Below, in pieces: positions 1 to 30,568 of a stretch of DNA of 33,631 bases; position 1 is the stretch's first letter; every line of letters starts with the position of its first letter. The translations under genes were made by a program, and so were the position numbers. Source of the stretch: a virus. The stretch spans positions 1 through 33,631 of IMG/VR virus record IMGVR_UViG_3300048598_000014; one strand, given 5' to 3'. Under the pieces are notes generated by a model. It saw only the letters and a program-made list of their open reading frames with translations, was not told the DNA's origin and ran no database searches.

Positions 1-127
1 ATGGGAAGCGGCGACATATATAGCGGAACATAAAGAAAAGGAGCAGGAAAAATGAGAACAAGCATTATGTGGCGGCAAGGTATGCTAGATATGTACGGAG
101 AGCGCAAGAGCCTCCGAGACTATCACA
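1..127. repeat. Terminal direct repeat, identical to 33505..33631 (circular assembly overlap or terminal redundancy)
   Basis: The first 127 nt (atgggaagcggcgacatatatagc...gagactatcaca) recur base for base at the end of the window. Confidence 0.95.
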
Positions 128-237
128 AGAGGCTTGTGACCGCAAGCAAGAATTACCGAATGCCTGAGACAAGGAAGTCTGATCTTGATAAATTTTTTGA
201 AGAGTGCGATGAAAGAATTAAGGGGCATAAAAAATGA
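52..237 (+). CDS. hypothetical early protein (61 aa)
   Basis: ORF with RBS aaggagcagg upstream. ATGA overlap with the end of 33257..33559 across the circular junction and with the next gene. Confidence 0.55.
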   Translation: MRTSIMWRQGMLDMYGERKSLRDYHKRLVTASKNYRMPETRKSDLDKFFEECDERIKGHKK

Positions 238-560
238 CGTTCGAAAAATGGTGGAATGAGACAATATCATATCAATATTTGGAACATGTAAATTTATTTC
301 ACAGAGATACAGCAAAACAACTTGCTCACGATGCATGGAACGTCGCACGGTCAAAGTGGAATTATTGCAAGGACGGTAAAAAGCCGAAACAAAATCAGCG
401 TGTCAATGCAATTATTAAGCCGGAAATTAAAAAGAATCCGCTGTATGTTGACACTGTTGTCTATCGTAACGGTAATTACATCAATGAGCGCACGTGCCAC
501 TTTGAAGAGGTCATCGCATGGATGCCGTTGCCGGAGGCTCCGAATGTACACGATGACTGA
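234..560 (+). CDS. DUF551-like phage protein, paralog of 2732..3115
   Basis: C-terminal VIAWMPLPEAP motif typical of DUF551. Shares WW.E...AHDAW...KW.YCKDG with 2732..3115. Confidence 0.7.
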   Translation: MTFEKWWNETISYQYLEHVNLFHRDTAKQLAHDAWNVARSKWNYCKDGKKPKQNQRVNAIIKPEIKKNPLYVDTVVYRNGNYINERTCHFEEVIAWMPLPEAPNVHDD

Positions 561-1428
561 AAAATCTGTGAGGCAGATAGAAATGCCAGGATTCGCGGAC
601 AGCATGAAATATCTGAGCGAACACCCAGACAAGGACGCTGAGATAACCCTGCACTGGAACACGATGCAGGAGGTCAGCCACTGGAATGACGTTGAGCGCA
701 AGTACAGGAGGGAGGTGCCAAAGAAATACTGGGATATCTCCACGGAGCCGACTGCGCTTAGCGAGCATCTGCCGTCAACGCTCATCGCACCGGAAATCAA
801 GGCATACATGCGGATGCTACAGCAGTATCTCGGAGCTATAGAGGGGCGCGTGAAGAGGGGCATGCACACGAACATCGTCCTGCTTGGAGAAAGCGGAATC
901 GGCAAATCATACCTAATGGCATGGACGATGAAAAGCCTGATGAACACGATAAAATATTACGAGAATCCGCTGAACGAATCGCCGACACCGAAGGACTTCC
1001 CGCATTACTGGAACGTGGAGTACACCACCGGTCAGACGCTCGGAAGAAGGTACAAGGCTTGCGACAGCTACAGGTCAACGGAATCGAAGAGGGACGTATG
1101 CAACGTCTACGCATACTGCGATTTGTTCATGCTCGATGAGGGCGGGCGGGTGCCGACAACGTACGAAAAGGAGGCTCTGTTCGACATCATGGACGAACGC
1201 GAGAAGAGCTGTATAATATCGGCAAATTTCAAGAGCCTTGACGAGATGCAGGACTACTACGGGGACGCGTGCATGGACAGGATACGGCAGAACATGGTTG
1301 TGCCGAACACGGAGGGGTGTGCGAGCATGAGGGGCAGCACCGAGCTGTCGCAGGACAGGGACTTGACAGAGATGCAGGACTTCGGTGATGGTGTATCAGA
1401 GCAATATACGGACGATGTGCCGTTTTAA
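544..1428 (+). CDS. DnaC/IstB-like AAA+ ATPase (putative helicase loader)
   Basis: Walker A GESGIGKS and Walker B DLFMLDEGG. Start chosen at ATG 544, 6 nt after GGAGG (533..537). The upstream part of the 322..1428 ORF overlaps the DUF551 gene. Confidence 0.75.
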   Translation: MYTMTEKSVRQIEMPGFADSMKYLSEHPDKDAEITLHWNTMQEVSHWNDVERKYRREVPKKYWDISTEPTALSEHLPSTLIAPEIKAYMRMLQQYLGAIEGRVKRGMHTNIVLLGESGIGKSYLMAWTMKSLMNTIKYYENPLNESPTPKDFPHYWNVEYTTGQTLGRRYKACDSYRSTESKRDVCNVYAYCDLFMLDEGGRVPTTYEKEALFDIMDEREKSCIISANFKSLDEMQDYYGDACMDRIRQNMVVPNTEGCASMRGSTELSQDRDLTEMQDFGDGVSEQYTDDVPF

Positions 1429-1448
1429 TCACATCAAGGAGCAAATAT

Positions 1449-1523
1449 ATGAGCAAGAAGACATTCACGCTCGTAAGCGCAATCGTGGGCGGAGTGTCCA
1501 CAACTGCTTCAACTGGACAATAG
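1449..1523 (+). pseudogene. Truncated copy (24 aa) of the small membrane-protein gene at 3112..3285
   Basis: MSKKTFTLVSAIVGGVSTTAS matches MSKKTFTLVTAIVGGVSTTAS of 3112..3285, with the same RBS context. The frame leaves the homolog exactly where repeat R1 begins and stops 3 codons later. Confidence 0.6.
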
Positions 1524-1553
1524 TAATTGCCAGTTAAGCAAATGTTAGAACGA
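1497..1553 (+). repeat. Structured intergenic repeat R1 (bulged hairpin GCTTCAACTGG / CCAGTTAAGC followed by AAATGTTAGA)
   Basis: Aligns with R2 and R3. The arms are complementary with one extrahelical C. Confidence 0.7.
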
Positions 1554-1610
1554 CAAACAACCGAGTACCGGCCTTCGGCCACTACACGGATAATTTGCGA
1601 GGAGGAAGCC

Positions 1611-1892
1611 GTGAAGATATTCAAGCTGAATGATTGCGATTGGTACGCCGCCGAGGATATGGAATCTGCCATTAAACAGATAATGTGTGACACCGGGAAT
1701 ACCCGCGAGGATTGCGTTGATTCTTCCGCTCACGAACTGACCGACAAGGAAATGGATCGTCTCAGATTCGTTGACGATATAGAGAACGACCCGGAGGCCG
1801 CAGGGTCTTCGCGCTCTTTCCGCGAACAACTTGCGCTCATGGTTGAACGCGGCGATACGTTTCCTTGCCCGTTTGCCACGACGGAGTTCTAA
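1611..1892 (+). CDS. hypothetical protein (93 aa)
   Basis: GTG start 5 nt after GAGGAGG. The rest of the 1527..1892 ORF lies in repeat R1. Confidence 0.6.
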   Translation: MKIFKLNDCDWYAAEDMESAIKQIMCDTGNTREDCVDSSAHELTDKEMDRLRFVDDIENDPEAAGSSRSFREQLALMVERGDTFPCPFATTEF

Positions 1893-1939
1893 CAACTGCT
1901 TCAACCTGACGCTTTGCGCCAGTTAAGCAAATGTTAGAT
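1888..1939 (+). repeat. Structured intergenic repeat R2 (TCTAAC-AA-CTGCTTCAACCTG...CCAGTTAAGCA-AAT-GTTAGAT)
   Basis: Nested imperfect palindrome. The outer arms are TCTAAC/GTTAGA. The inner arms are TGCTT(C)AAC(C)TG / CAGTTAAGCA with two bulged C. It contains the stop codon of the preceding ORF. Confidence 0.7.
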
Positions 1940-1950
1940 GGATCCTTTAG

Positions 1951-1979
1951 CAGTCTACCCGCCTTAGGCGGGTAGACTG
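1951..1979 (+). promoter_or_regulatory. Perfect 13-bp stem hairpin (cagtctacccgcc tta ggcgggtagactg) with no U-tract, just upstream of an RBS
   Basis: Perfect inverted repeat read directly. It is followed by acacgaacaaagccaaggagg, not by T-rich sequence. Confidence 0.7.
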
Positions 1980-2006
1980 ACACGAACAAAGCCAAGGAGG
2001 AATAAC

Positions 2007-2156
2007 ATGGCGAAGTTTAATGTTGATGTAGAAAAAATGACGGAAGCTCAGGCGAAAGAAACCCTGCAAAAAATCATTGAGGCACTCGACAATCTCGATG
2101 GCGACGATTATTTTGGCACCGAGGGATGGAGGCATTTCATGGGCTTCGAGGATTAG
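2007..2156 (+). CDS. hypothetical protein (49 aa, MAKFNVDVEKMTEAQ...)
   Basis: Hand translated, below the ORF-track length cutoff. RBS AAGGAGG lies 7 nt upstream. The ORF is bounded by repeats R2 and R3. Confidence 0.55.
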   Translation: MAKFNVDVEKMTEAQAKETLQKIIEALDNLDGDDYFGTEGWRHFMGFED

Positions 2157-2159
2157 GCC

Positions 2160-2217
2160 TCTAACAACGGCTTCGACCTGACAAGCTAACGAATGCAGGT
2201 CAACTCAATGTTCTACG
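2160..2217 (+). repeat. Structured intergenic repeat R3 (diverged copy: TCTAACAACGGCTTCGACCTG...CAGGTCAACTCAATGTTCTAC)
   Basis: Same layout as R1 and R2. The stem changes from AACTGG/CCAGTT to GACCTG/CAGGTC, so pairing is preserved. The bulged C is conserved. Confidence 0.6.
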
Positions 2218-2227
2218 GACGTTTTAG

Positions 2228-2254
2228 CCGTATAAGCGCCCCGTGCTTATACGG
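2228..2254 (+). promoter_or_regulatory. 10-bp stem hairpin CCGTATAAGC gccccgt GCTTATACGG upstream of the HNH gene
   Basis: Inverted repeat read directly. The arms recur at 30872..30912. Confidence 0.65.
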
Positions 2255-2283
2255 ACACACGCCAAGCCCCGGCGGAGGTTATC

Positions 2284-2514
2284 GTGGATAGAAAACAGTT
2301 GCGCGAAATGTTCGGCGGAAAATGTGCCTACTGCGGGAAGCCGCTCGGAAAGGTTTTTCACGCGGATCACGTCGAGCCGATTTATCGCGGATGGACAGAC
2401 GCATCGCGCCCTAGACAAGCAGGAAAGGACGTTGTGGAAAACCTATTTCCTGCTTGTCCTCGGTGCAGCTTGCGTTGTGACGGCAGTAGTGCTGTCGATT
2501 ATTCAGTTATTTAG
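2284..2514 (+). CDS. small HNH endonuclease-like protein (76 aa)
   Basis: CAYCGKPL...HADHVEPI...ENLFPACPRC layout of HNH/His-Me finger proteins. GTG start follows GGAGG. The last motif reads CPRCS rather than C..CN. Confidence 0.6.
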   Translation: MDRKQLREMFGGKCAYCGKPLGKVFHADHVEPIYRGWTDASRPRQAGKDVVENLFPACPRCSLRCDGSSAVDYSVI

Positions 2515-2536
2515 AAAATAATAAGGAGCAGGCGAA

Positions 2537-2719
2537 ATGACAGTAGAAGAGTTCAATCTTCCGTTATGGAAGCGAAACAAGATTAAGGTGCTTCCAAAAG
2601 GTGCGACATACTTTGAATGCCCTCGTTGTGATATTAAAATAAGAGTGACAAGGAACGACGCTATTCTAGGAACCGTTTCCTGCCCAGAGTGCGGTCATAA
2701 TTATGAATACGGACTATAA
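2537..2719 (+). CDS. zinc-ribbon protein (60 aa)
   Basis: Two CxxC pairs (CPRCD, CPECG). RBS AAGGAGCAGG. Confidence 0.65.
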   Translation: MTVEEFNLPLWKRNKIKVLPKGATYFECPRCDIKIRVTRNDAILGTVSCPECGHNYEYGL

Positions 2720-2731
2720 GGAGCAGAAGAA

Positions 2732-3115
2732 ATGACGTTTAAGGAATGGTGGAAAGAAAAAGCATTAAAAATGATTGTACTTAATTATGGAGCAGAAGAA
2801 ATTGCTCATGACGCATGGCAAGCCGCACAGCCGAAGTGGACGTACTGCAAGGACGGAATGCCGAAAGAAAAAGACGGAAAAGTTATTACCACGCATGAAA
2901 CTGACGCTAGCTTTTATTCGCACGAGATAAAAGTTATTCGAGTTTATGTAAAACTTGAAACACAAAACCCGTTCAATGAAACTAGAATTGATAATTTTTG
3001 TCTTTCGACAAACAAGTTTGAAAAGTATGAAGACTTGGTTATCGCATGGATGCCGTTGCCGGAGGCGCCGGCAGAAATTAACAGTGGCTTTAATAAGCAA
3101 GGAGTACATATATGA
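2732..3115 (+). CDS. DUF551-like phage protein, paralog of 234..560
   Basis: C-terminal VIAWMPLPEAP and shared N-terminal motifs with 234..560. Confidence 0.7.
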   Translation: MTFKEWWKEKALKMIVLNYGAEEIAHDAWQAAQPKWTYCKDGMPKEKDGKVITTHETDASFYSHEIKVIRVYVKLETQNPFNETRIDNFCLSTNKFEKYEDLVIAWMPLPEAPAEINSGFNKQGVHI

Positions 3116-3285
3116 GCAAGAAGACGTTCACTTTGGTGACCGCAATCGTGGGGGGCGTGTCTACAACCGCTTCAGCAATCGTGACCTACGTCAACCCTGC
3201 ATGGGCTGTCGCAATCGTGGCTTCAATCGGCATCGTCAACACTGCGGTGGTGGCGGTGTGTAACCAGTTCGTCAAGGAGGAATGA
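3112..3285 (+). CDS. small hydrophobic membrane protein (57 aa)
   Basis: Hand translated: MSKKTFTLVTAIVGGVSTTASAIVTYVNPAWAVAIVASIGIVNTAVVAVCNQFVKEE. ATGA overlap with the upstream gene. Two hydrophobic stretches. Confidence 0.65.
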   Translation: MSKKTFTLVTAIVGGVSTTASAIVTYVNPAWAVAIVASIGIVNTAVVAVCNQFVKEE

Positions 3286-3409
3286 CAATGGCATGTGGAA
3301 AGAAATCTTCTGCCGGCAAGGGCGGGAAGAAATAAGCCCAGAACGGAACGGAAACACTGCGGCGGTGTAATTTCACGTCTTTCGTGAAAAGTACGCTATA
3401 AACAGGCTT

Positions 3410-3431
3410 CTCGCGCGTTTGCGGGCTTTTT
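3410..3431 (+). terminator. weak intrinsic terminator (CUCGC gcguuu GCGGG + U5)
   Basis: 5-bp stem including one G-U pair, followed by ctttttag. It lies at the end of the early small-gene block. Confidence 0.35.
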
Positions 3432-3476
3432 AGCTGGCACACTGTACGTCTATTTCTTGCTTGAATAATAAAACAG

Positions 3477-3505
3477 TGGACTTTAGGCGTAGAGTGTGGT
3501 ATACT
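3477..3505 (+). promoter_or_regulatory. sigma70-like promoter (TGGACT-17-TATACT with TGn extended -10) ahead of the ParB/rSAM/packaging operon
   Basis: Hexamers and spacing read from the sequence. Confidence 0.4.
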
Positions 3506-3572
3506 TAATCCATAGCGGAGACCTCCTGCCAGACCCCACATGATCAGGTTTCCGCTTCACTGGTGGGAAAAA

Positions 3573-4169
3573 ATGGACGAAATAAAAGTAAACTGCAAGG
3601 CAGCCGACACTCTCGACATACAGGACATGACGCTCTTTCAGGGCGAGTTGAAGTCACGCACCGATGCAGACTATGAGCATATAAAAAAATCAATACTTGA
3701 ATACGGCTTCTGCGCTCCGTTCTTCATCTGGGAGCATGACGGAGTGAACAGCGTCCTTGACGGTACGGGACGCTATGAGACATTGCAGCGAATGAAGTCA
3801 GAAGGATATGACATACCGCTCCTGCCGGTCGCATACATAGACTGCAAGGACGAGGCGACGGCGAAGCAAAAGCTGCTCAGACTTAATTCACACTACGGAT
3901 ACATGACTTCTGAAAGTGTAAAAGAGTTTGTCGGAGATATGGAAATAGACTATTCGGACATATCACTTCCAGAAGGTACGCTCGACTTTTCAAAGTTAGA
4001 AGAATACGAAACTGGTACGGAAGAAGGTGTTGAAGATATGATAAGCACCTTCGGAGTTACGCTTAATTTTGACAAAAGATATGAGCCGGATATAAAGCAG
4101 TTTGTAAAGGACAATGGGAAGCAGGCTGTAGTAGAGCAGATTATCAGCATGGCAGAGGCTAACGAATGA
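3573..4169 (+). CDS. ParB/Srx-like N-terminal domain protein 1
   Basis: The SILEYGFCAPFFIW...LDGTGRYETL pattern resembles the ParB-like nuclease domain (SI..fG...Pi.v...DG.hR). Start set at ATG 3573 by alignment with its paralog (MDEIKVNCKAADTL vs MIKIECKANDTL). Confidence 0.65.
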   Translation: MDEIKVNCKAADTLDIQDMTLFQGELKSRTDADYEHIKKSILEYGFCAPFFIWEHDGVNSVLDGTGRYETLQRMKSEGYDIPLLPVAYIDCKDEATAKQKLLRLNSHYGYMTSESVKEFVGDMEIDYSDISLPEGTLDFSKLEEYETGTEEGVEDMISTFGVTLNFDKRYEPDIKQFVKDNGKQAVVEQIISMAEANE

Positions 4170-4777
4170 TAAAAATTGAATGCAAGGCTAACGACACGCT
4201 CGCCATAGAAAAAATGAAACTATTTCAGGGGACGCTAAAGACAAGACTCCCAGAAGATTATGTAAAGATACAGAAATCAATTGAGCAGTACGGATTCAGT
4301 TTCCCGTTTTTCATTTGGAATTACAAAGGCGACAACTGGGTAATAGACGGTACAGGAAGATATGAAACCTTAAATAAAATGAAGGAAGCAGGGGAAAAAA
4401 TACCTGAACTACCTGTTGTATATATAAATTGCAAGGACAAAGAAGATGCGAAGCAGATACTTCTGAGAATAAATTCACAGTACGGGTCCCTTTCGCAGAA
4501 GAGTGTAGAAAAGTTTTCGGAGGATATTGAAGTTGAATATGCCGACTTGGACTTGCCAGAAGGATGCATATATTTCAGCGAAGATGAAGATGAGCCTCTG
4601 AATCTTGAATATGACACAGGGACAAGTGAAGATTCGGCAACGGCAGATACATTTGCAATGACGTTCGACATAGACAACGGGTACAGGGACAAGGTGCAGG
4701 AGTATATACGGAAAAATGGAAAACAGCAGCTCGTTAAGGTTGTGATGGAGCTTGCAGGAGTTGAGCAAGATGCCTAG
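4166..4777 (+). CDS. ParB/Srx-like N-terminal domain protein 2 (tandem paralog)
   Basis: Collinear similarity to 3573..4169 along its whole length (FQG.LK.R...DY..I.KSI..YGF..PFFIW, DGTGRYETL, LP..YI.CKD, LPEG). ATGA overlap with paralog 1. Confidence 0.65.
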   Translation: MIKIECKANDTLAIEKMKLFQGTLKTRLPEDYVKIQKSIEQYGFSFPFFIWNYKGDNWVIDGTGRYETLNKMKEAGEKIPELPVVYINCKDKEDAKQILLRINSQYGSLSQKSVEKFSEDIEVEYADLDLPEGCIYFSEDEDEPLNLEYDTGTSEDSATADTFAMTFDIDNGYRDKVQEYIRKNGKQQLVKVVMELAGVEQDA

Positions 4778-5765
4778 ATGCGGAAGCCAAATCGTTCTTT
4801 GCGATGTACCGGTTAGATTTGATACATACGAAGGGTGTACACATGCCTGCAGGTACTGTTTTGTGAAAAGGAAAACAGACATAAGAGACGTAAAGCTCGG
4901 AGAAAGCCCTGAACAGCTCATAGGGTTTATACACGGGAAAAGGACTAACGAGACGAAGTGGTGCGACTGGAAGATACCGATACACTGGGGAGGGATGAGC
5001 GACCCGTTCCAACCGTGCGAAAAAATACACAAACGTTCATTGGAGTGCCTAAGGGTTTTTGCAGAAACGGGCTATCCGTTCATGGTAAGCACGAAGAGCA
5101 TACTGCCCACGCAGAAAGAATATCTTGATTTATTCAAGAGGTGCAACTGCGTCTTTCAGGTAAGCATGGTATGCAGCAAATATGACGCATACGAGAAGGG
5201 CGCACCGACATTCGAGGAAAGAAAAAAGATGCTTGCCATAATGGCTCCGAACGTTAAAAGAGTTGTGGTGAGAATACAGCCGTACCTGCTTTCTGTAGAA
5301 AAAGATGTTATCGCACAGTTAAAAGATTATGCAGAAATGGGTGTGTACGGTATCACAATCGAAGGCATGAAATACAAAACACTCCAGAAGGATACTGAGA
5401 AGGTATACGGAGACTATGGATTCAAGCTGGACATTCTGCGGAGAAGTTTTGAGCGGATAAAAAACGAGGCGCACAGGGTAGGGCTCGTTTTCCTGAGCGG
5501 AGAAAACAGACTGCGCAGCATGGGAGACAGCCTGACGTGCTGCGGTTGCGAGGGGTTGGAAGGATTCAGGGTAAACACATACAACCTGAACAGCATGAAC
5601 TGCGGAAGGAGACCAGAGCCAACATCAGGGATGAGTGAAAGCGGGACTGCATTTGTATTCAAAGCCTTGTTTCAGGATTCTGGGGCAACGAAGGCATTTG
5701 AAAAGGCGTGCATGAAAGACGTAATGGACAGATACAGAAACGACCATAAGGACGTGGTAAGATAA
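4770..5765 (+). CDS. radical SAM enzyme, spore-photoproduct-lyase/COG1533-like
   Basis: CTHACRYC (CxxxCxxC) followed by WGGMSDPFQPCE, as in SplB/COG1533 proteins. ATG 4770 lies 9 nt after AGGAG. Overlaps ParB-2 by 8 nt and TerS by 1 nt (TAATG). Confidence 0.8.
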   Translation: MPRCGSQIVLCDVPVRFDTYEGCTHACRYCFVKRKTDIRDVKLGESPEQLIGFIHGKRTNETKWCDWKIPIHWGGMSDPFQPCEKIHKRSLECLRVFAETGYPFMVSTKSILPTQKEYLDLFKRCNCVFQVSMVCSKYDAYEKGAPTFEERKKMLAIMAPNVKRVVVRIQPYLLSVEKDVIAQLKDYAEMGVYGITIEGMKYKTLQKDTEKVYGDYGFKLDILRRSFERIKNEAHRVGLVFLSGENRLRSMGDSLTCCGCEGLEGFRVNTYNLNSMNCGRRPEPTSGMSESGTAFVFKALFQDSGATKAFEKACMKDVMDRYRNDHKDVVR

Positions 5766-6172: not shown

Positions 6173-7458
6173 AGCTGCTGCCGTTCAATGCTAAGGCGCG
6201 TGAGGTGTGCGATGCCAATCAGTTCGGCTATCTCACAGTGCTTGAGGGAAGCGTCAGAAGCATGAAAACAGTCACGTCGTTAATTGCGTGGCTTTTGTAC
6301 GTCATACGCTCTGACGAAAAAGTATTCCTGATGTCGGGCTATACAGCAGGCTCACTGCTCCATAACTGCATAACAGAGGAATACGGCTTGCAGAACATAT
6401 GCGGGGGAATGCTGACATTCAGGGCAGATGAGAACGGGCGCAAATACATGGCTCTAGGCGGAAAGCACATCTACTACTGCGGAGCGGGCACTGCGGACGC
6501 GCAGAGCGTAATAACCGGCTTGAGCATCGGCGGGTGGTATGCGGACGAAGTAAACAAGCACCACAAGACGTTCGTAAATCAGGCATTGAACAGAAGCATT
6601 GCAAGCCAGGACAGGTGCAACTTCTGGACGCTCAACCCTGAGGCGCCGTCACACTGGATTTACAAAGATTACATAGACAAGTACAAGGAGCAGAATCTTT
6701 CCGGCTACAGGTGGTATCACTTCACGCTTGATGATAATCCGGCAATCACAGCGGAACGCAAAGCAGAATTGAGACAGCAGTACACTGGAGTATTCTTCCA
6801 GCGCGACATACTCGGCTTGCGTGTTCGGGCAGAGGGAGCCTGCTTTCCTTCTTTCGTGCACAATGCAAAGGGAGCATACGGCAATGTCATGTATGAACTG
6901 CCGGAACATTTCAAACCGCTTTTTGCAAACATCGGCGCGGATATAGGCGGAACTGGATCTGCAACAACAAACGCCTGCACGGTGTTCTACCGGAACGATA
7001 AAGGCGAACTGTGCGGACTGCTCATTGATGAGATGTATGACACGGACAACAAGAGCACCGAGAGCATAATTGCCAATTTTAAGCAGTTTGTAATCAGGAA
7101 TAAAGCTAAATACAGAGTAGCAGGAGCAAGAAGCGACAGTGCGGAACAGCTCATCAAGAAGAGCTACGCTGCCACCGGTGTGTGCAACGTTGCGGACAGC
7201 TTAAAGCGTCCTATCGTTGACCGCATACGCTTCTTTGACCTTGCATACAGCCTTAAGCGCTTTTACATCTGGCATGAGTGCGTGCATACGATTGAGGCGG
7301 TTGAATCCGCGGTGTGGAGCGACAAGCCTAGCAAGGACGGAACGGAAACGCGCCTTGATGACGGAAGCACCAACATAGACAGTCTGGACGCTATGGAATA
7401 CAGCGTTGAGGAATACATGAGTGATTTTAATTTGGTAAAAATGGAGGCAGGGGAATGA
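6169..7458 (+). CDS. terL: terminase large subunit
   Basis: 429 aa. Deviant Walker A GSVRSMKT. PBSX/Terminase_3-like layout with acidic nuclease motifs (GADIGG, SLDAMEY). Position between TerS and portal. Confidence 0.8.
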   Translation: MKLLPFNAKAREVCDANQFGYLTVLEGSVRSMKTVTSLIAWLLYVIRSDEKVFLMSGYTAGSLLHNCITEEYGLQNICGGMLTFRADENGRKYMALGGKHIYYCGAGTADAQSVITGLSIGGWYADEVNKHHKTFVNQALNRSIASQDRCNFWTLNPEAPSHWIYKDYIDKYKEQNLSGYRWYHFTLDDNPAITAERKAELRQQYTGVFFQRDILGLRVRAEGACFPSFVHNAKGAYGNVMYELPEHFKPLFANIGADIGGTGSATTNACTVFYRNDKGELCGLLIDEMYDTDNKSTESIIANFKQFVIRNKAKYRVAGARSDSAEQLIKKSYAATGVCNVADSLKRPIVDRIRFFDLAYSLKRFYIWHECVHTIEAVESAVWSDKPSKDGTETRLDDGSTNIDSLDAMEYSVEEYMSDFNLVKMEAGE

Positions 7459-8153
7459 AATCAGAGACTTACAACATCGACTGTATGGATTACATGCGCA
7501 CGTGCAAAGATAAACAGTTTGATCTTGCGATTGTTGACCCGCCGTATGGACTTAATATAGATAAAAAAAATAATAGTGAAATAAAATTATCTGACAAGTC
7601 AGCAACGAAATCAAAATATTATGGAAATCAGGAATGGGATAATAATGTTCCTGATGAAAACTATTTTAACGAATTATTTAGAATATCAAAAAATCAAATA
7701 ATATGGGGTGTAAATTATTATCCTTATAATTTTTTATCAGGAGGAAGAATTTATTGGAATAAAAAAGTTACAATGCCCACATATAGTAGCGGAGAACTCG
7801 CATATTGTTCGTTGCAAAACAATATAAAACAATTTGATTATGAATGGCATGGAATGCTTCAACAGGATATGAAAAATAAAGAATTCCGTATTCATCCCAC
7901 CCAGAAACCCGTTGCTCTGTATAAATGGCTCCTGTCACATTATGCTCATGCCGGAGACAGAATTATTGACACACATCTTGGTTCTGGCTCTTCACGCATT
8001 GCATGCCATGACATGGGATTTGATTTTGTCGGCATCGAGATTGACAAGGATTATTTTGAAGCAGAAGAAAAAAGATACAGTGATCATGTTTCACAGCTTG
8101 ATTTAATAAAGCCGGAAGAGATACAGCAACTGCAATTCGCAGTAAACAAATAA
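7455..8153 (+). CDS. DNA methyltransferase (N6-adenine/N4-cytosine type, beta class)
   Basis: Motif IV DPPYG near the N-terminus, HPTQKPVALYKWLL, and motif I-like DTHLGSGSS near the C-terminus. Confidence 0.9.
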   Translation: MKSETYNIDCMDYMRTCKDKQFDLAIVDPPYGLNIDKKNNSEIKLSDKSATKSKYYGNQEWDNNVPDENYFNELFRISKNQIIWGVNYYPYNFLSGGRIYWNKKVTMPTYSSGELAYCSLQNNIKQFDYEWHGMLQQDMKNKEFRIHPTQKPVALYKWLLSHYAHAGDRIIDTHLGSGSSRIACHDMGFDFVGIEIDKDYFEAEEKRYSDHVSQLDLIKPEEIQQLQFAVNK

Positions 8154-26425: not shown

Positions 26426-27394
26426 ATGGCAACAACTGGAAAAAAGAAAACAGCAAAGACTGTAGAGACAGCAGAAACAAAACTGCCGAAGGTACTGGAC
26501 ATACCAACGGCAGTGAATGCGCTCATGGCAGAGGCGGCAGGGAAGTCGCTCAGCGTGAACAACATCACGATGAGCATAGACGGTTTGGAGGCATACGTCA
26601 ATGAGACGTTGCCGAACTATGCACCGGACAAATACACCGGTGACGCTGATGCGGCGAAGAAAGACCGCGCAGTGCTGAATGGCGGTCTCAAGCAGATTGC
26701 GGACGCACGCAAGCAGATTATCGCAAAGGCAATGGAGCCGTTCAAACTGCTTGAAACAAGAATGAAAACTCTTGAAAAACAAATGGAGAACGGTTCAGCG
26801 GCGCTTGACGCAATCGTAAAAGAAAAAGAAATCGCAGAAAAAGACGCAAAGAAAAACTTGTGCCTTAAAATCTGGAACGACAAAGGGTTCACCCTTATCG
26901 ACTTTGAGCTAATCTTTGACATCAAATGGACTAATAAGACAACGAAGCTTGAAGACGTATCAAAGGAAATCGACACAATCATCAACCGCATTAAAACGGA
27001 TATAAAGACACTCGAAGCATTGCCGGATGCTGACACACTCAAGGCAATCTATCTGCAATCTCTTGACCTGTCCTATGCAATGAACGAAGCCGCACAGCTT
27101 AAAGCAAACCGGGAACGCGCGACAGCGGAAGCAGCGGCACGCGCTGCGGCAGAACAGCGCGAGCAGATCGTATCACAGTATCACGAAGAGACGGTTGAAT
27201 ATTTCGAGCAGCAGAAGGAAGAGAAGCCTGTAACGCTTGCGGCGGAAGTCCTTGGAGTGGAGCCTGACATTGACCCGATTACAACATACTCACTTGAGTT
27301 TACCGGCAGAAAATCGGATTTGATCGCCATGCGTACATACATGAGCGAGCATGGAATCACATACAAGAAACTGGAAACAGAAGGAGCGTACTAA
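26426..27394 (+). CDS. DUF1351-like recombination-module protein
   Basis: Coiled-coil protein with KKDRAVLNGGLKQIADARKQI. Conserved position upstream of SSB and RecT in Firmicutes-type phages. Confidence 0.6.
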   Translation: MATTGKKKTAKTVETAETKLPKVLDIPTAVNALMAEAAGKSLSVNNITMSIDGLEAYVNETLPNYAPDKYTGDADAAKKDRAVLNGGLKQIADARKQIIAKAMEPFKLLETRMKTLEKQMENGSAALDAIVKEKEIAEKDAKKNLCLKIWNDKGFTLIDFELIFDIKWTNKTTKLEDVSKEIDTIINRIKTDIKTLEALPDADTLKAIYLQSLDLSYAMNEAAQLKANRERATAEAAARAAAEQREQIVSQYHEETVEYFEQQKEEKPVTLAAEVLGVEPDIDPITTYSLEFTGRKSDLIAMRTYMSEHGITYKKLETEGAY

Positions 27395-27852
27395 TGAACG
27401 GAACGAACGTTGTCGCAGTAGTCGGACGTCTCACACGGGACGCGGGAATTAAATACACGGGCGCAGGCATGGCGATTGCATCATGCGCTGTTGCAGTTAA
27501 CACAAGCAGAAAGGACGCACAGGGAAACTGGACTGATGAAGCCAACTTCTTTGATGTCACAATTTTCGGGAAAACGGCAGAAACGCTCAAGCCTTATCTC
27601 ATCAAGGGCAAGCAGATTGCAGTCACCGGACACCTCAAGCAGGACAGGTGGGAAAAGGACGGACAGAAGTTCAGCAAGGTATCAATTGTTGCAGATACTG
27701 TCGAGCTTCTGGGCGGAGACAGACACAGCACGGAAGCAGCACCTCAGGCTATGCAGCAGAGCAACTATGCACAGCAGTACCAACAGCAACAGCAGGCTCC
27801 TGCACAGCAGGAATTCCCCGAAGATATTCCATTCGGCGACACGACATTCTAG
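27394..27852 (+). CDS. ssb: single-stranded DNA-binding protein
   Basis: OB-fold N-terminus VVAVVGRLTRD...FFDVTIFGK.AE, Q-rich linker, acidic C-terminal tip EDIPF. Confidence 0.9.
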   Translation: MNGTNVVAVVGRLTRDAGIKYTGAGMAIASCAVAVNTSRKDAQGNWTDEANFFDVTIFGKTAETLKPYLIKGKQIAVTGHLKQDRWEKDGQKFSKVSIVADTVELLGGDRHSTEAAPQAMQQSNYAQQYQQQQQAPAQQEFPEDIPFGDTTF

Positions 27853-27863
27853 GAGGCAGAAAA

Positions 27864-28793
27864 ATGAGCGATACAGAAGTGGCGGTCAAGCAGACCGCAG
27901 TACAGAGCGTCAACGAGACACCCGAATATTTTTACAACCTTGCTCAGGAATATGCGCACAACAACTACCGTGACCTCACACCTGCACAGTTCAACTTGTT
28001 TGTTGCGACAGCGCGTGAGTGCTGTCTCAATCCGGTAAAGCGTGAGGTTTATGCAGTCACATACAACGACTACAAGTCCGGCGAAAAGAAGATGAACATC
28101 ATCACCGGCTATGAGGTTTACCTCAAGCGAGCAGAGCGCACAGGCAAGCTCAACGGGTGGGAGTGCCACATAGACGGACAGGGAAATCAGATGAAGGCTG
28201 TTGTCACCATCGACCGCAAGGACTGGGAGCACCCGTTCAAGCACGAGGTGTACATGAGCGAGTACAACACCGGCAAATCACTATGGTCAACTAAGCCTAT
28301 CACAATGTTGAAGAAGGTTGCAATGGCGCAGGCTTTCCGACTTGCGTTCCCTGATGAGTTGGGCGGCATGCCGTACACGTCAGACGAACTTGGAACGGAA
28401 GAACAGACGGAGCGCAACGTGACACCGCAGAAGCCTCAGGCTGTAACTGGTGAAGAGACTAAGCCGGCAGAGCCGAAGCAGGTTGAAGCACCGAAGCCGG
28501 AAGAGAAGAAACCGCCGGTGGAGGGCATGACAACTGCGAACAAGATTGCACCACACTGCACACCGATGCAGGCAGAGGAGATGAAAAAACTTTTCGCTTC
28601 AACATATCCAGACGGAACACCTGTCATGGCAGACGATGAAAAGGAAATGTACCGAGCAATGGGCAGAAGCAAGTCAATGCAGGACACAATCACGTCATGC
28701 AGGAAGTATGTCGCTGACAAACTTGCACAGTACAAGCCGCAGACTGCACCGAAGCCGGAGCAGGTGAAGCCGATACCGGAAGAAATATTCTAA
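27864..28793 (+). CDS. recT: RecT/Bet-family single-strand annealing protein
   Basis: LNPVKREVYAV...GYEVYLKRAERTG...LWSTKPITMLKKVAMAQAFRLAFPDELGGMPYTSDE. ATG 27864 follows AGGAGG. Confidence 0.8.
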   Translation: MSDTEVAVKQTAVQSVNETPEYFYNLAQEYAHNNYRDLTPAQFNLFVATARECCLNPVKREVYAVTYNDYKSGEKKMNIITGYEVYLKRAERTGKLNGWECHIDGQGNQMKAVVTIDRKDWEHPFKHEVYMSEYNTGKSLWSTKPITMLKKVAMAQAFRLAFPDELGGMPYTSDELGTEEQTERNVTPQKPQAVTGEETKPAEPKQVEAPKPEEKKPPVEGMTTANKIAPHCTPMQAEEMKKLFASTYPDGTPVMADDEKEMYRAMGRSKSMQDTITSCRKYVADKLAQYKPQTAPKPEQVKPIPEEIF

Positions 28794-29279: not shown

Positions 29280-29507
29280 ATGAAATCAAAACGTATCCAA
29301 CAATCCTGTTATACATGTGACAACCTGATGTTCGATGTGACCAAAGAGGAAATCGAAACACAAAGGATATGCGGTTGCAGGAATCATTCGGGAATATGTT
29401 TTTGGATTGATAAAGGAAAGACGCTTGAGCAGTCTAGAAAAGACCTTTTAAAAGGTGGTTGCAGTGACTGGACAAGGGACGCGGAAAAACAACTGTCCCT
29501 GTTCTAA
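29280..29507 (+). CDS. Cys-containing hypothetical protein (75 aa)
   Basis: ORF in the operon context. Confidence 0.5.
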   Translation: MKSKRIQQSCYTCDNLMFDVTKEEIETQRICGCRNHSGICFWIDKGKTLEQSRKDLLKGGCSDWTRDAEKQLSLF

Positions 29508-29527
29508 AAATTAACGGAGGAAGAAGA

Positions 29528-29746
29528 ATGAACAAATGTTTGATGTGCACAAATATGTGCAAGAGAAAGACGGTAAGCGGAAACTACCGCATAACATGCG
29601 CGGTTAATCGCGATGTTGTTCTTTTTGGTGAGCTTGGCAACGAGCCTATCGTTGACTGCTGTGGGAAATACTCTCCAATGCGCGAGTACGGAAGCAGTTG
29701 TCACGGCATGGCGGTGAACGGACATAGGGCAGGAGGCGGAAAATAA
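29528..29746 (+). CDS. Cys-rich hypothetical protein (72 aa)
   Basis: RBS GGAGGAAG. Its stop abuts the next start. Confidence 0.5.
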   Translation: MNKCLMCTNMCKRKTVSGNYRITCAVNRDVVLFGELGNEPIVDCCGKYSPMREYGSSCHGMAVNGHRAGGGK

Positions 29747-30568
29747 ATGGAACGTATTGCATTGTATTGTGACAGCTTCCAAAACTGGAAGTCACACGAT
29801 ATACAAAAGGCGCAGTTGATTCTGACAGACATACCGTATCAGCTCGGAGATTCTGCATACGGTAGCAATCCAATGTGGTATAACGGTGGTGATAACGATA
29901 ATGGAGAATCAAAATATGCACATAAATCATTTTTCGATACAGATTCAAAAGCAGGTTTCCGCATTGCAGAGTTCTTTCATTTTTGCAGTAATTTGTTAAT
30001 CAAGGAACCGAAAGAAACAGGGAAAGCGCCGTGTATGATTTTATTCTGTGCATTTGAACAGCAGTTTGAATTGATTCAGGAAGCACAGAAATACGGTTTC
30101 AATCATTATATTAATTTGGTATTCAGAAAAAACTTTTCCGCACAGGTACTAAAAGCAAATATGCGCGTAGTCGGCAACTGTGAATACGGTCTTATTTTTT
30201 ACCGCGATAAATTACCGAAATTCAACAATGATGGCAAAATGATTTTTAACTGCATGGACTGGATAAAAGATACCGTGACGCCAAAAGTGCACGAAACACA
30301 GAAGCCGGTCCCGGTGCTCGAAAATCTTATCCGCATTTTTACCGATGTGAATGACGTTGTAATTGACTGCTGTGCCGGTAGCGGGACAACTTTGCTTGCG
30401 GCAAAAAATCTTGAAAGAAGGGCTTACGGATTTGAACTTAAAAAGAAATACGTAAATGATTTTTATGAAAAGATTCTGCCGTGCTATCAACCAGACATGT
30501 TCTGTGTACAAGAAAAGGAAAATAAAAAACTTAAACAGCTAGAATTTATGGAGGCTGTAAATGACTGA
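29747..30568 (+). CDS. DNA methyltransferase (N6A/N4C family) with variant motif IV DIPY
   Basis: LILTDIPYQLG, HETQKPVPVLENLI, DCCAGSGTT. Confidence 0.85.
   Translation: MERIALYCDSFQNWKSHDIQKAQLILTDIPYQLGDSAYGSNPMWYNGGDNDNGESKYAHKSFFDTDSKAGFRIAEFFHFCSNLLIKEPKETGKAPCMILFCAFEQQFELIQEAQKYGFNHYINLVFRKNFSAQVLKANMRVVGNCEYGLIFYRDKLPKFNNDGKMIFNCMDWIKDTVTPKVHETQKPVPVLENLIRIFTDVNDVVIDCCAGSGTTLLAAKNLERRAYGFELKKKYVNDFYEKILPCYQPDMFCVQEKENKKLKQLEFMEAVND

Follow-up and report, generated by a model that had tools for sequence, protein, structure and literature searches.

A probable cluster of integron attC sites in the early region of a siphovirus-like phage

The DNA analysed here, 33,631 nucleotides of viral sequence (IMG/VR record IMGVR_UViG_3300048598_000014, positions 1 to 33,631; "the window" hereafter), contains three repeats, R1 (1497-1550), R2 (1887-1939) and R3 (2159-2216), all on the + strand and all copies of one bulged hairpin. 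We consider it highly probable (roughly 0.88) that R1-R3 are integron attC sites which, together with two small genes, make up a CALIN, the name given to clustered attC sites that lack an integrase (Cury et al. 2016). The phage is siphovirus-like, and the array occupies part of its early, post-replication region. A preliminary description, made from the sequence alone, had likened these units to attC sites, as a recombination or processing signal bracketing mini-cassettes; the recombination signal is supported more strongly than was then proposed, and R1-R3 belong to the attC family itself, beyond mere resemblance to it. Such an arrangement is already known from phages but is seldom seen, phage attC sites having first been reported in 2023, from 21 genomes (PMC9892861).

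Results and discussion

attC anatomy and covariation

The family to which the repeats belong was aligned from 81 distinct copies, and a covariance model was built from these alone. In the window this model scores R1 at 56.8 bits, R2, the best-preserved site, at 63.7 bits and R3, with marked non-pairs, at 60.0 bits (E-values 1e-12 to 1e-14); all three fall within 720 bp and no further convincing copy was found in 33.6 kb. These scores bear out the earlier proposal that the three units share one architecture. The shared 5' motif has five matches in the window, a number that none of 100 shuffles equalled. Each unit overlaps or adjoins a stop codon, as had also been described: TAG 1521-1523 sits in the R1 loop, TAA 1890-1892 within R'' of R2, and TAG 2154-2156 immediately 5' of R3.

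The family consensus is (T)CTAACA-AC-NGCTT-C-AACCTG-A-C[variable tip]G-CAGGTT-AAGC-AA-TGTTAGA. Its AAC and GTT core boxes are essentially invariant across the 81 copies, the inner four R-box pairs are Watson-Crick in 80-81 of them, and the spacer AC opposite AA, an unpaired 2x2, is the same in every one. The unpaired C that the preliminary description had seen in the 5' arm (G on the bottom strand) is likewise invariant, in 81 of 81 copies, and six pairs away from it a bulged A (T on the bottom strand) is present in 79; R1, R2 and R3 each carry both extrahelical bases. Two-sided changes affect 13 of the 22 pairs, and the replacement on both sides of the R3 stem, to which attention had been drawn before, is real and part of this family-wide covariation. 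Sliding the partner lowers the share of paired stem cells from 88% to 40% or less, and none of 500 shuffles attained the observed score. The tip varies from a few nucleotides to about 100 nt, and from R'' to R' the sites measure 37-134 nt, about 56 nt at the median; attC sites are typically about 57-141 bp long.

Run on an 8-kb segment of a class 1 integron plasmid, the family model gave a sole match, to attCaadA7 (34.5 bits, E 2.6e-7; attC sequence from Qi et al. 2023, Suppl. Table S3, PMC9892861), a recognition that serves, through a model built from this family, as a proxy for R1-R3.

Homologous sites in Tetrasphaera phage TJE1

A sensitive DNA search against cultured phages returned a single match, to Tetrasphaera phage TJE1, and nothing else in the first 4.2 kb. 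Window positions 2162-2282, which comprise R3, the second hairpin that follows it and a ribosome-binding site (RBS), are 76% identical over about 120 nt to TJE1 1019-1136, and this alignment corresponds exactly to TJE1_attC2 of Suppl. Table S3. TJE1 has a site of the R1/R2 type at 1465-1520 and a further site at 239-301, and the family covariance model recovers all three of its attC sites. Calls of the IntegronFinder/HattCI type thus exist for these homologues, the TJE1 sites having been predicted with IntegronFinder and with HattCI+Infernal (PMC9892861). When assayed, TJE1_attC1 and TJE1_attC2 were recombined with attI1 by IntI1 at frequencies like that of attCaadA7, with junctions at G|TT and with the bottom strand outperforming the top (PMC9892861).

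State of the three sites

An R-box test applied to the window gave seven pairs for R2, only three for R1, and unpaired flanks for R3. In R2 the boxes are R'' TTCTAAC and R' GTTAGAT (GTT 1933-1935), and the outer pairing TCTAAC/GTTAGA seen earlier was confirmed; its L box is a hybrid, 5' AACCTG with 3' CCAGTT, which gives one additional bulge, and the z-scores of its DNA fold are -4.1 (top strand) and -5.7 (bottom strand). R1 has kept its L boxes (AACTGG/CCAGTT), both bulges and R' GTTAGAA (GTT 1544-1546), with z-scores of -4.3 to -4.6 for the DNA fold. At its 5' end R1 consists of coding sequence of a truncated gene, and for this reason its R'' is damaged and lacks one A (TCC-ACAAC); the junction lies inside a gene in 13-14 nt of microhomology, ACAAC(T/C)GCTTCA. 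A core identical to that of R1 but with an intact R'' (ATCTAAC) is found 3' of a methyltransferase gene in the related loci L124 and L223. R3 retains AAC, GTT (2210-2212), both bulges and the GACCTG/CAGGTC stem; neither its R-box flanks nor its GGCTT/AACTC helix nor its tip stem still pairs, and as a whole it folds weakly (z about -1). R3 is a decayed copy of the TJE1_attC2/L155 type. We infer that the window array is now mostly a relic, R1 and R3 being damaged, while R2 may still be usable.

Upstream of an N6_N4 methyltransferase gene (29747-30568) is a stretch, 29479-29552, that matches attC weakly (15.5 bits, E 0.1). Only its ends, AACAACTG..CAAATGTT, match; it is without a fold, includes an RBS and a start codon, and was rejected as an attC site. 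It may be the remnant of a lost one.

Spread of the family and its cargo

Loose pattern and 16-mer scans yielded about 90 viral contigs with the element; in the first loose pattern scan about 25 of 120 hits were real and the remainder were due to chance. A 28-base pattern matched 17 genome contigs, including long bacterial ones, namely Desulfosarcina (2.6 Mb) and a Treponemataceae chromosome, and other bacterial contigs above 60 kb from Deinococcota, Vulcanibacillus and Proteobacteria. With the covariance model, a scan that the preliminary description had suggested, we found 194 sites in 88 loci, beside many unrelated cargo open reading frames (ORFs). As the three copies in the window lie within 800 bp, and R1 and R2 have an identical 21-mer in common, one could suspect a local triplication, or chance palindromes without function. 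Triplication is refuted by the 191 further copies in 87 other loci, which include distant phages and bacterial chromosomes and hold diverse cargo, and neither version accounts for the strong covariation or the unrelated flanking genes, so that we give this explanation practically no weight.

Viral contigs carry up to seven sites each, and the median spacing between sites is 346 bp. Of the 50 loci with more than one site, 49 have them all on a single strand. Site and longest ORF have the same orientation in 90 of 103 cassettes (median ORF 92 aa). Cargo is diverse, 90 proteins falling into 77 clusters, and most cluster representatives had no Pfam hit; those that had one include N6_N4, D12, Dam, MT-A70 and C5 DNA methyltransferases, Mom, Lar, RtcB and DUF551. 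Anti-restriction functions recur among the cargo. The loci are mostly unrelated to the window phage, the genes common to both being methyltransferases (17-21 loci), SSB (8) and terminase/portal (4). Frequent neighbours of the arrays are ParB-domain methyltransferases, SSB, DnaB and terminase, the commonest in related contigs being a ParB-domain/DNA-methyltransferase fusion (19 loci).

An 8-kb locus of the Treponemataceae chromosome (OY762953; L133) contains 10 attC sites of 120-135 nt with the same R- and L-box sequence, and cassettes of 0.35-1.2 kb, with PIN-domain, peptidase S51 and methyltransferase genes among their cargo. The locus is a sedentary chromosomal array of the classical kind, and a short hairpin stands 3' of R' there as well. 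Elsewhere, in long bacterial contigs of unrelated phyla (L122, L129, L132), single or paired copies are found beside ordinary genes and look like solo cassettes at secondary sites. Several bacterial chromosomes and no fewer than 70 contigs of uncultivated viruses thus share one highly conserved attC family, whose cassettes are unusually small and rich in anti-restriction genes (several DNA methyltransferase classes, Mom, Lar, RtcB), and the participation of phages in the integron cassette economy gains support.

Upstream ORFs often enter the 5' arm of attC, ending in ..HLTTAST(GQ) or ..NNEFDLTT (e.g. L124:812-1704, L150, L151, and window 1497-1523), and attC thereby supplies the final codons and the stop, either TGA within CCTGAC or TAA within CTAAC. 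A conserved protein-coding remnant, read in the 5' arm as ..TTAST followed by a stop or as ..NNxFxLT, was considered and rejected, because upstream genes enter the element in all three frames at R1, R2 and R3.

Where cassettes are exchanged

Across the family, similarity between loci switches within -4 to +3 of GTT. Where two sites share the right flank and not the left, the last mismatch lies 1-6 nt before the G in 45 of 68 site pairs; where the left flank is shared and the right is not, the first difference comes directly after GTT in 60 of 133 pairs and one base later in 45 more. From these breakpoints we conclude that the switch point is GTT, the integrase crossover site. One DUF551 cassette follows five different attC sites, its start always being GTT|GGATGGACGCTT, and in three contigs it ends in its own atypical attC (..AAATCATAGTT), after which three different cassettes diverge right past GTT. 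The linkage of attC tip type to the upstream gene versus the downstream cassette was less decisive, because identical attC sites and leaders (the second hairpins discussed below) are reused with unrelated ORFs.

Bottom-strand folding and recombination by an integrase are established for attC sites generally and have been demonstrated with the TJE1 homologue. In these phages, the bottom strand, once single-stranded, would fold into the bulged hairpin, and an integron integrase acting in trans would bind the R and L boxes, with the extrahelical G and T selecting the strand. Cutting and strand exchange at G|TT of R' would then excise and insert units of the form [TT-leader-ORF-attC-G]. Phage arrays of this family would have been assembled and reshuffled in this way, and would offer places at which small accessory genes, many with anti-restriction functions, can be exchanged.

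One may also consider that the units are short homology linkers, and that ORFs are swapped between them by RecT/SSB annealing of the phage or by host recombination, without an integrase. The phage does encode RecT (27648-28793) and SSB (27394-27852), so that the earlier statement that no cognate recombinase is present holds for an integron integrase and needs this qualification. Exchange through homology would fit the microhomology at the R1 junction, the hybrid nature of R2, L069 and L187, which combine attC subtypes, the unrelated ORFs flanked by the same attC and the same leader, the deletion end points in two relatives of the window (L223, L224) that lie away from G|TT, and the fact that an integrase was not found. 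It leaves unexplained, however, the invariant extrahelical bases, the covarying stems and the AAC/GTT cores, as well as the independent assortment of attC and leader and the confinement of the break to GTT even where bases -1 to -4 differ. Nor does it explain why the cassette with the atypical 3' arm diverges from its three neighbours exactly after GTT, and the TJE1 homologue is a proven IntI substrate (PMC9892861). We regard homology linkers without an integrase as an unlikely explanation.

A number of observations weigh against reading R1-R3 as integron attC sites of a CALIN. The full consensus RYYYAAC/GTTRRRY fits about half of the copies: R' variants such as GTTAGAT (that of R2), GTTGGAT, GTTAGGC and GTTAGAC conform, and GTTATAC and GTTATGC do not, yet TJE1_attC2 carries GTTATGC and recombined (PMC9892861). 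Identical attC sites follow unrelated genes in 44 pairs, and identical leaders precede unrelated ORFs in 86 pairs versus 23; the pattern is therefore partly one of module reuse and not of single events. Not all shuffling occurred at G|TT, as the R1 junction inside a gene and the three hybrids attest. An integron integrase was found neither in the window (Pfam on all large ORFs; tblastn with IntI1) nor, by tblastn with IntI1, anywhere in the other retrieved loci, up to about 6-7 kb from the related arrays. Pfam gave no tyrosine recombinase among the window ORFs scanned, and the conserved neighbours of the arrays included none. Because no IntI-like match was found, the window array is classed as a CALIN and not as a complete integron; as two or more neighbouring attC sites without an intI in the vicinity, R1-R3 come under that definition. 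Finally, the nearest cultured relatives of the portal are from Bacillota phages (at most 39% identity) and the host of TJE1 is an actinobacterium, while Firmicutes and Actinobacteria had no complete integrons in Cury et al. 2016. Which integrase serves phages whose likely hosts are without integrons is a testable question raised by these arrays.

The leader hairpin

The preliminary description had counted as part of the repeat unit a second hairpin, without a U-tract, after R2 (1951-1979) and R3 (2228-2254), and had seen only a short 4-bp GGCC hairpin after R1. The hairpins after R2 and R3 exist as described (z -2.1 to -5.8); the one after R1 is really an imperfect 13-pair stem at 1561-1589, enclosed by CAAA/TTTG. 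The break in similarity, however, falls at GTT, between attC and the second hairpin, and assigns the hairpin to the next cassette. As it lies between R' and the RBS, which in the family stands a median of 52 nt past GTT, we call it the leader (hp2) of that cassette.

All three leaders in the window are on the + strand. That of cassette A (1551-1598) has, around its inner stem, the outer helix CAAA 1554-1557/TTTG 1594-1597, followed by the RBS GAGGAGG; it folds with -10.3 kcal/mol on the bottom strand (z -4.3) and -7.3 kcal/mol on the top (z -2.7), and its type recurs in L173, L155 and L077. The leader of cassette B (1940-1993) contains a perfect 13-pair stem, has z -5.8 on both strands and recurs in type in L088, L155 and L158. 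The third, before the HNH gene (2217-2270), has an outer helix GG(A)CGT/ACGCC around its inner stem and z-scores of -2.1 to -3.4, and is conserved with compensatory changes in TJE1, L015, L176 and L069. In 38 non-redundant leaders the inner stem has two-sided changes in 7 of 7 pairs, its cells are paired in 92% of cases as against at most 41% when slid, and none of 500 shuffles reached the score. An outer helix frequently encloses the inner stem, and many leaders have an R-box-like palindromic core, e.g. GCATAAC-AA-GTTATGC.

Transition-type mismatches in the leaders, read on the coding strand, are A:C in 58 cases and G:T in 8 (p = 2e-10; 20 versus 4 in the non-redundant set). Leader triloops are TNC on the top strand, that is GNA on the bottom, in 20 cases versus 0, and of 81 leaders 68 have the more stable fold on the bottom strand and 11 on the top. 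Mismatch bias, triloops and fold energies together suggest that the leader folds on the bottom strand.

This polarity bears on a further explanation, namely that the hairpins act in mRNA, as RNase III-type sites, stabilisers, weak terminators or translation regulators, T7-like, and that their likeness to attC is convergent. Their intergenic position, with all copies facing the same way as the genes, agrees with such a role, as do the long imperfect hairpins with internal loops and the coding-strand loops TTCG and TACG, which resemble UNCG loops; attC hairpins are themselves thought to be weak transcription terminators (cited in PMC9892861). Rfam, on the other hand, gave nothing relevant in 1-4200 at E <=10 and nothing at gathering score across the whole window, and neither a terminator-like hit nor a U-tract was found on the + strand in 1497-2280. 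In the attC stems G:U-type pairs (47) are not commoner than A:C-type pairs (52), numbers that are uninformative as to the choice of strand, and in the leaders the bias is opposite to what RNA would need. The attC tip triloops are TNC on top (GNA on the bottom) in 10 cases versus 0 for the opposite, which for leaders and tips together makes 30 versus 0, and the same sequence builds a classical chromosomal cassette array. Wobble and loop statistics thus give no sign of selection on the transcribed strand, contrary to the RNA-processing alternative that had been raised earlier, and we hold a function in mRNA to be very improbable. A self-cleaving ribozyme or riboswitch was also considered in view of the cross-phylum conservation, and was dropped on three grounds: anatomy of the attC type, the published work on TJE1 and the strand statistics. 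A tRNA scan found nothing.

In the literature searched we found no description of the leader hairpin, and its role on the bottom strand is a second testable question. A speculative and, in our judgement, rather doubtful possibility is that the leader is a second single-stranded-DNA element beside attC, which might be an accessory site for folding or for the integrase, or might give the priming signal once the single-stranded cassette has been excised; with attC it would then form a phage-adapted mini-cassette system through which unrelated phages, among them phages of Gram-positive hosts in which an integron integrase is not known, trade counter-defence genes, possibly via an unrecognised recombinase.

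Cassettes and neighbouring genes in the window

Upstream the array is bordered by a DnaC-like loader gene (553-1428), downstream by a series of small early genes that precede the terminase. It is preceded by a truncated small membrane-protein gene of 24 codons (1449-1523, + strand), whose 3' end is fused into R1 and which ends at the TAG in the R1 loop. Cassette A carries an ORF of 93 aa (1611-1892, +; PHROG 5459, unknown function, no Pfam match), the protein of which has identical copies in two other assemblies, in changed contexts. The ORF of cassette B (49 aa, 2007-2156, +) has no significant family and accompanies cassette A in L223 and L224. There follows a short HNH endonuclease gene (76 aa, 2284-2514, +; Pfam HNH 2.2e-07, PHROG 2118 1.3e-21), at which the array ends, since no attC lies 3' of it.

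L223 (SRR33038077) and L224 (Logan SRR35987655) are near-identical relatives that differ from window 1500-2870 by cassette-scale indels. In L224 a deletion of 2194-2522, with its breakpoint in the R3 loop, removes the HNH gene and the leader before it along with the 3' half of R3. L223 is without the attC before the 93-aa gene and has an intact methyltransferase cassette ending in an R1-type attC, plus an extra 83-aa cassette. The R1 junction and these two population variants suggest that ordinary homology-driven or illegitimate recombination has also been at work.

The early region contains a duplicated two-gene module, consisting of a DUF551 gene (234-560; 2732-3115) and a small membrane-protein gene (1449-1523; 3112-3285). 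The complete version of the latter is 3112-3285, and window 1435-1511 is 84% identical to 3098-3174; in the first copy of the module the DnaC-like gene separates the pair, and the small gene is cut to its 24 codons at the R1 fusion. Further 3', a 250-nt gap (3290-3540) with a terminator-like hairpin and T-run (3410-3425) and a promoter-like site with TG extension (3477-3505) probably marks an operon boundary where the small early genes end. Two tandem ParB-like paralogues (3540-4169, 4166-4777) come next, followed by a radical SAM protein gene (4752-5765) directly upstream of a small terminase-like HTH gene. A second N6_N4 DNA methyltransferase gene (7455-8153) stands between the large terminase and portal genes and has no adjoining attC.

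Comparison with known systems

The closest known counterpart is the CALIN of TJE1 (Qi, Rajabal, Ghaly, Tetu, Gillings 2023, Front Microbiol 14:1091391), which has the same attC sequence family, small co-oriented cassettes in the phage early region, methyltransferase cargo and no integrase. TJE1 is nevertheless a different phage, sharing with ours only the element and methyltransferases; the three sites of the window are all imperfect and predicted from sequence, whereas TJE1_attC1 and attC2 have been assayed. The leader hairpin and the breadth of this attC family are not described in the TJE1 paper (PMC9892861).

With canonical attC sites such as attCaadA7 the family shares the layout R''-spacer-L''-variable tip-L'-spacer-R', the AAC/GTT cores and, on the bottom strand, both the extrahelical G and T and a tip loop of the GNA type. 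In both, the sites lie at the 3' ends of ORFs without promoters, and the consensus when aligned to attCaadA7 reads TCTAACAA....TTCAA...GAC[..]GC...TTAA...A...GTTAGATG. The spacer in the phage family is only 2x2 nt, smaller than in attCaadA7, and its cassettes are much smaller than those of canonical integrons, as the median spacing and ORF length given above indicate. The setting is viral and not a chromosome or plasmid, and a conserved leader hairpin opens almost every cassette. In complete integrons intI, attI and Pc are adjacent to the array, in contrast to the phage array, near which none of them was found. Treponema is known for chromosomal integrons, with attC sites of 115-132 bp in some species (Wu, Doak, Ye 2013, BMC Evol Biol 13:16; PMC3607928), a class that the 120-135 nt sites of L133 match; this comparison rests on the 8-kb locus, the intI of the array being beyond that stretch. 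L133 has long variable tips, whereas the phage sites are mostly 50-60 nt and have elaborated leaders.

The PeSL cassettes of T4-type phages, with which the preliminary description had compared the units, are similar in that repeated intergenic hairpins flank small, variable, early accessory genes. PeSL units consist of an early promoter and a stem-loop and are thought to recombine by homology. The units of the window differ in having attC anatomy, and this alternative is unsupported because no promoter-like (sigma-70-like) sequence was found at R1-R3 on the + strand. RNase III sites of T7 are similar imperfect hairpins with internal loops between co-transcribed early genes; the strand-polarity tests, however, favour bottom-strand DNA over RNA, and the sequence conservation of the family across unrelated phages and bacteria goes far beyond what RNase III needs.

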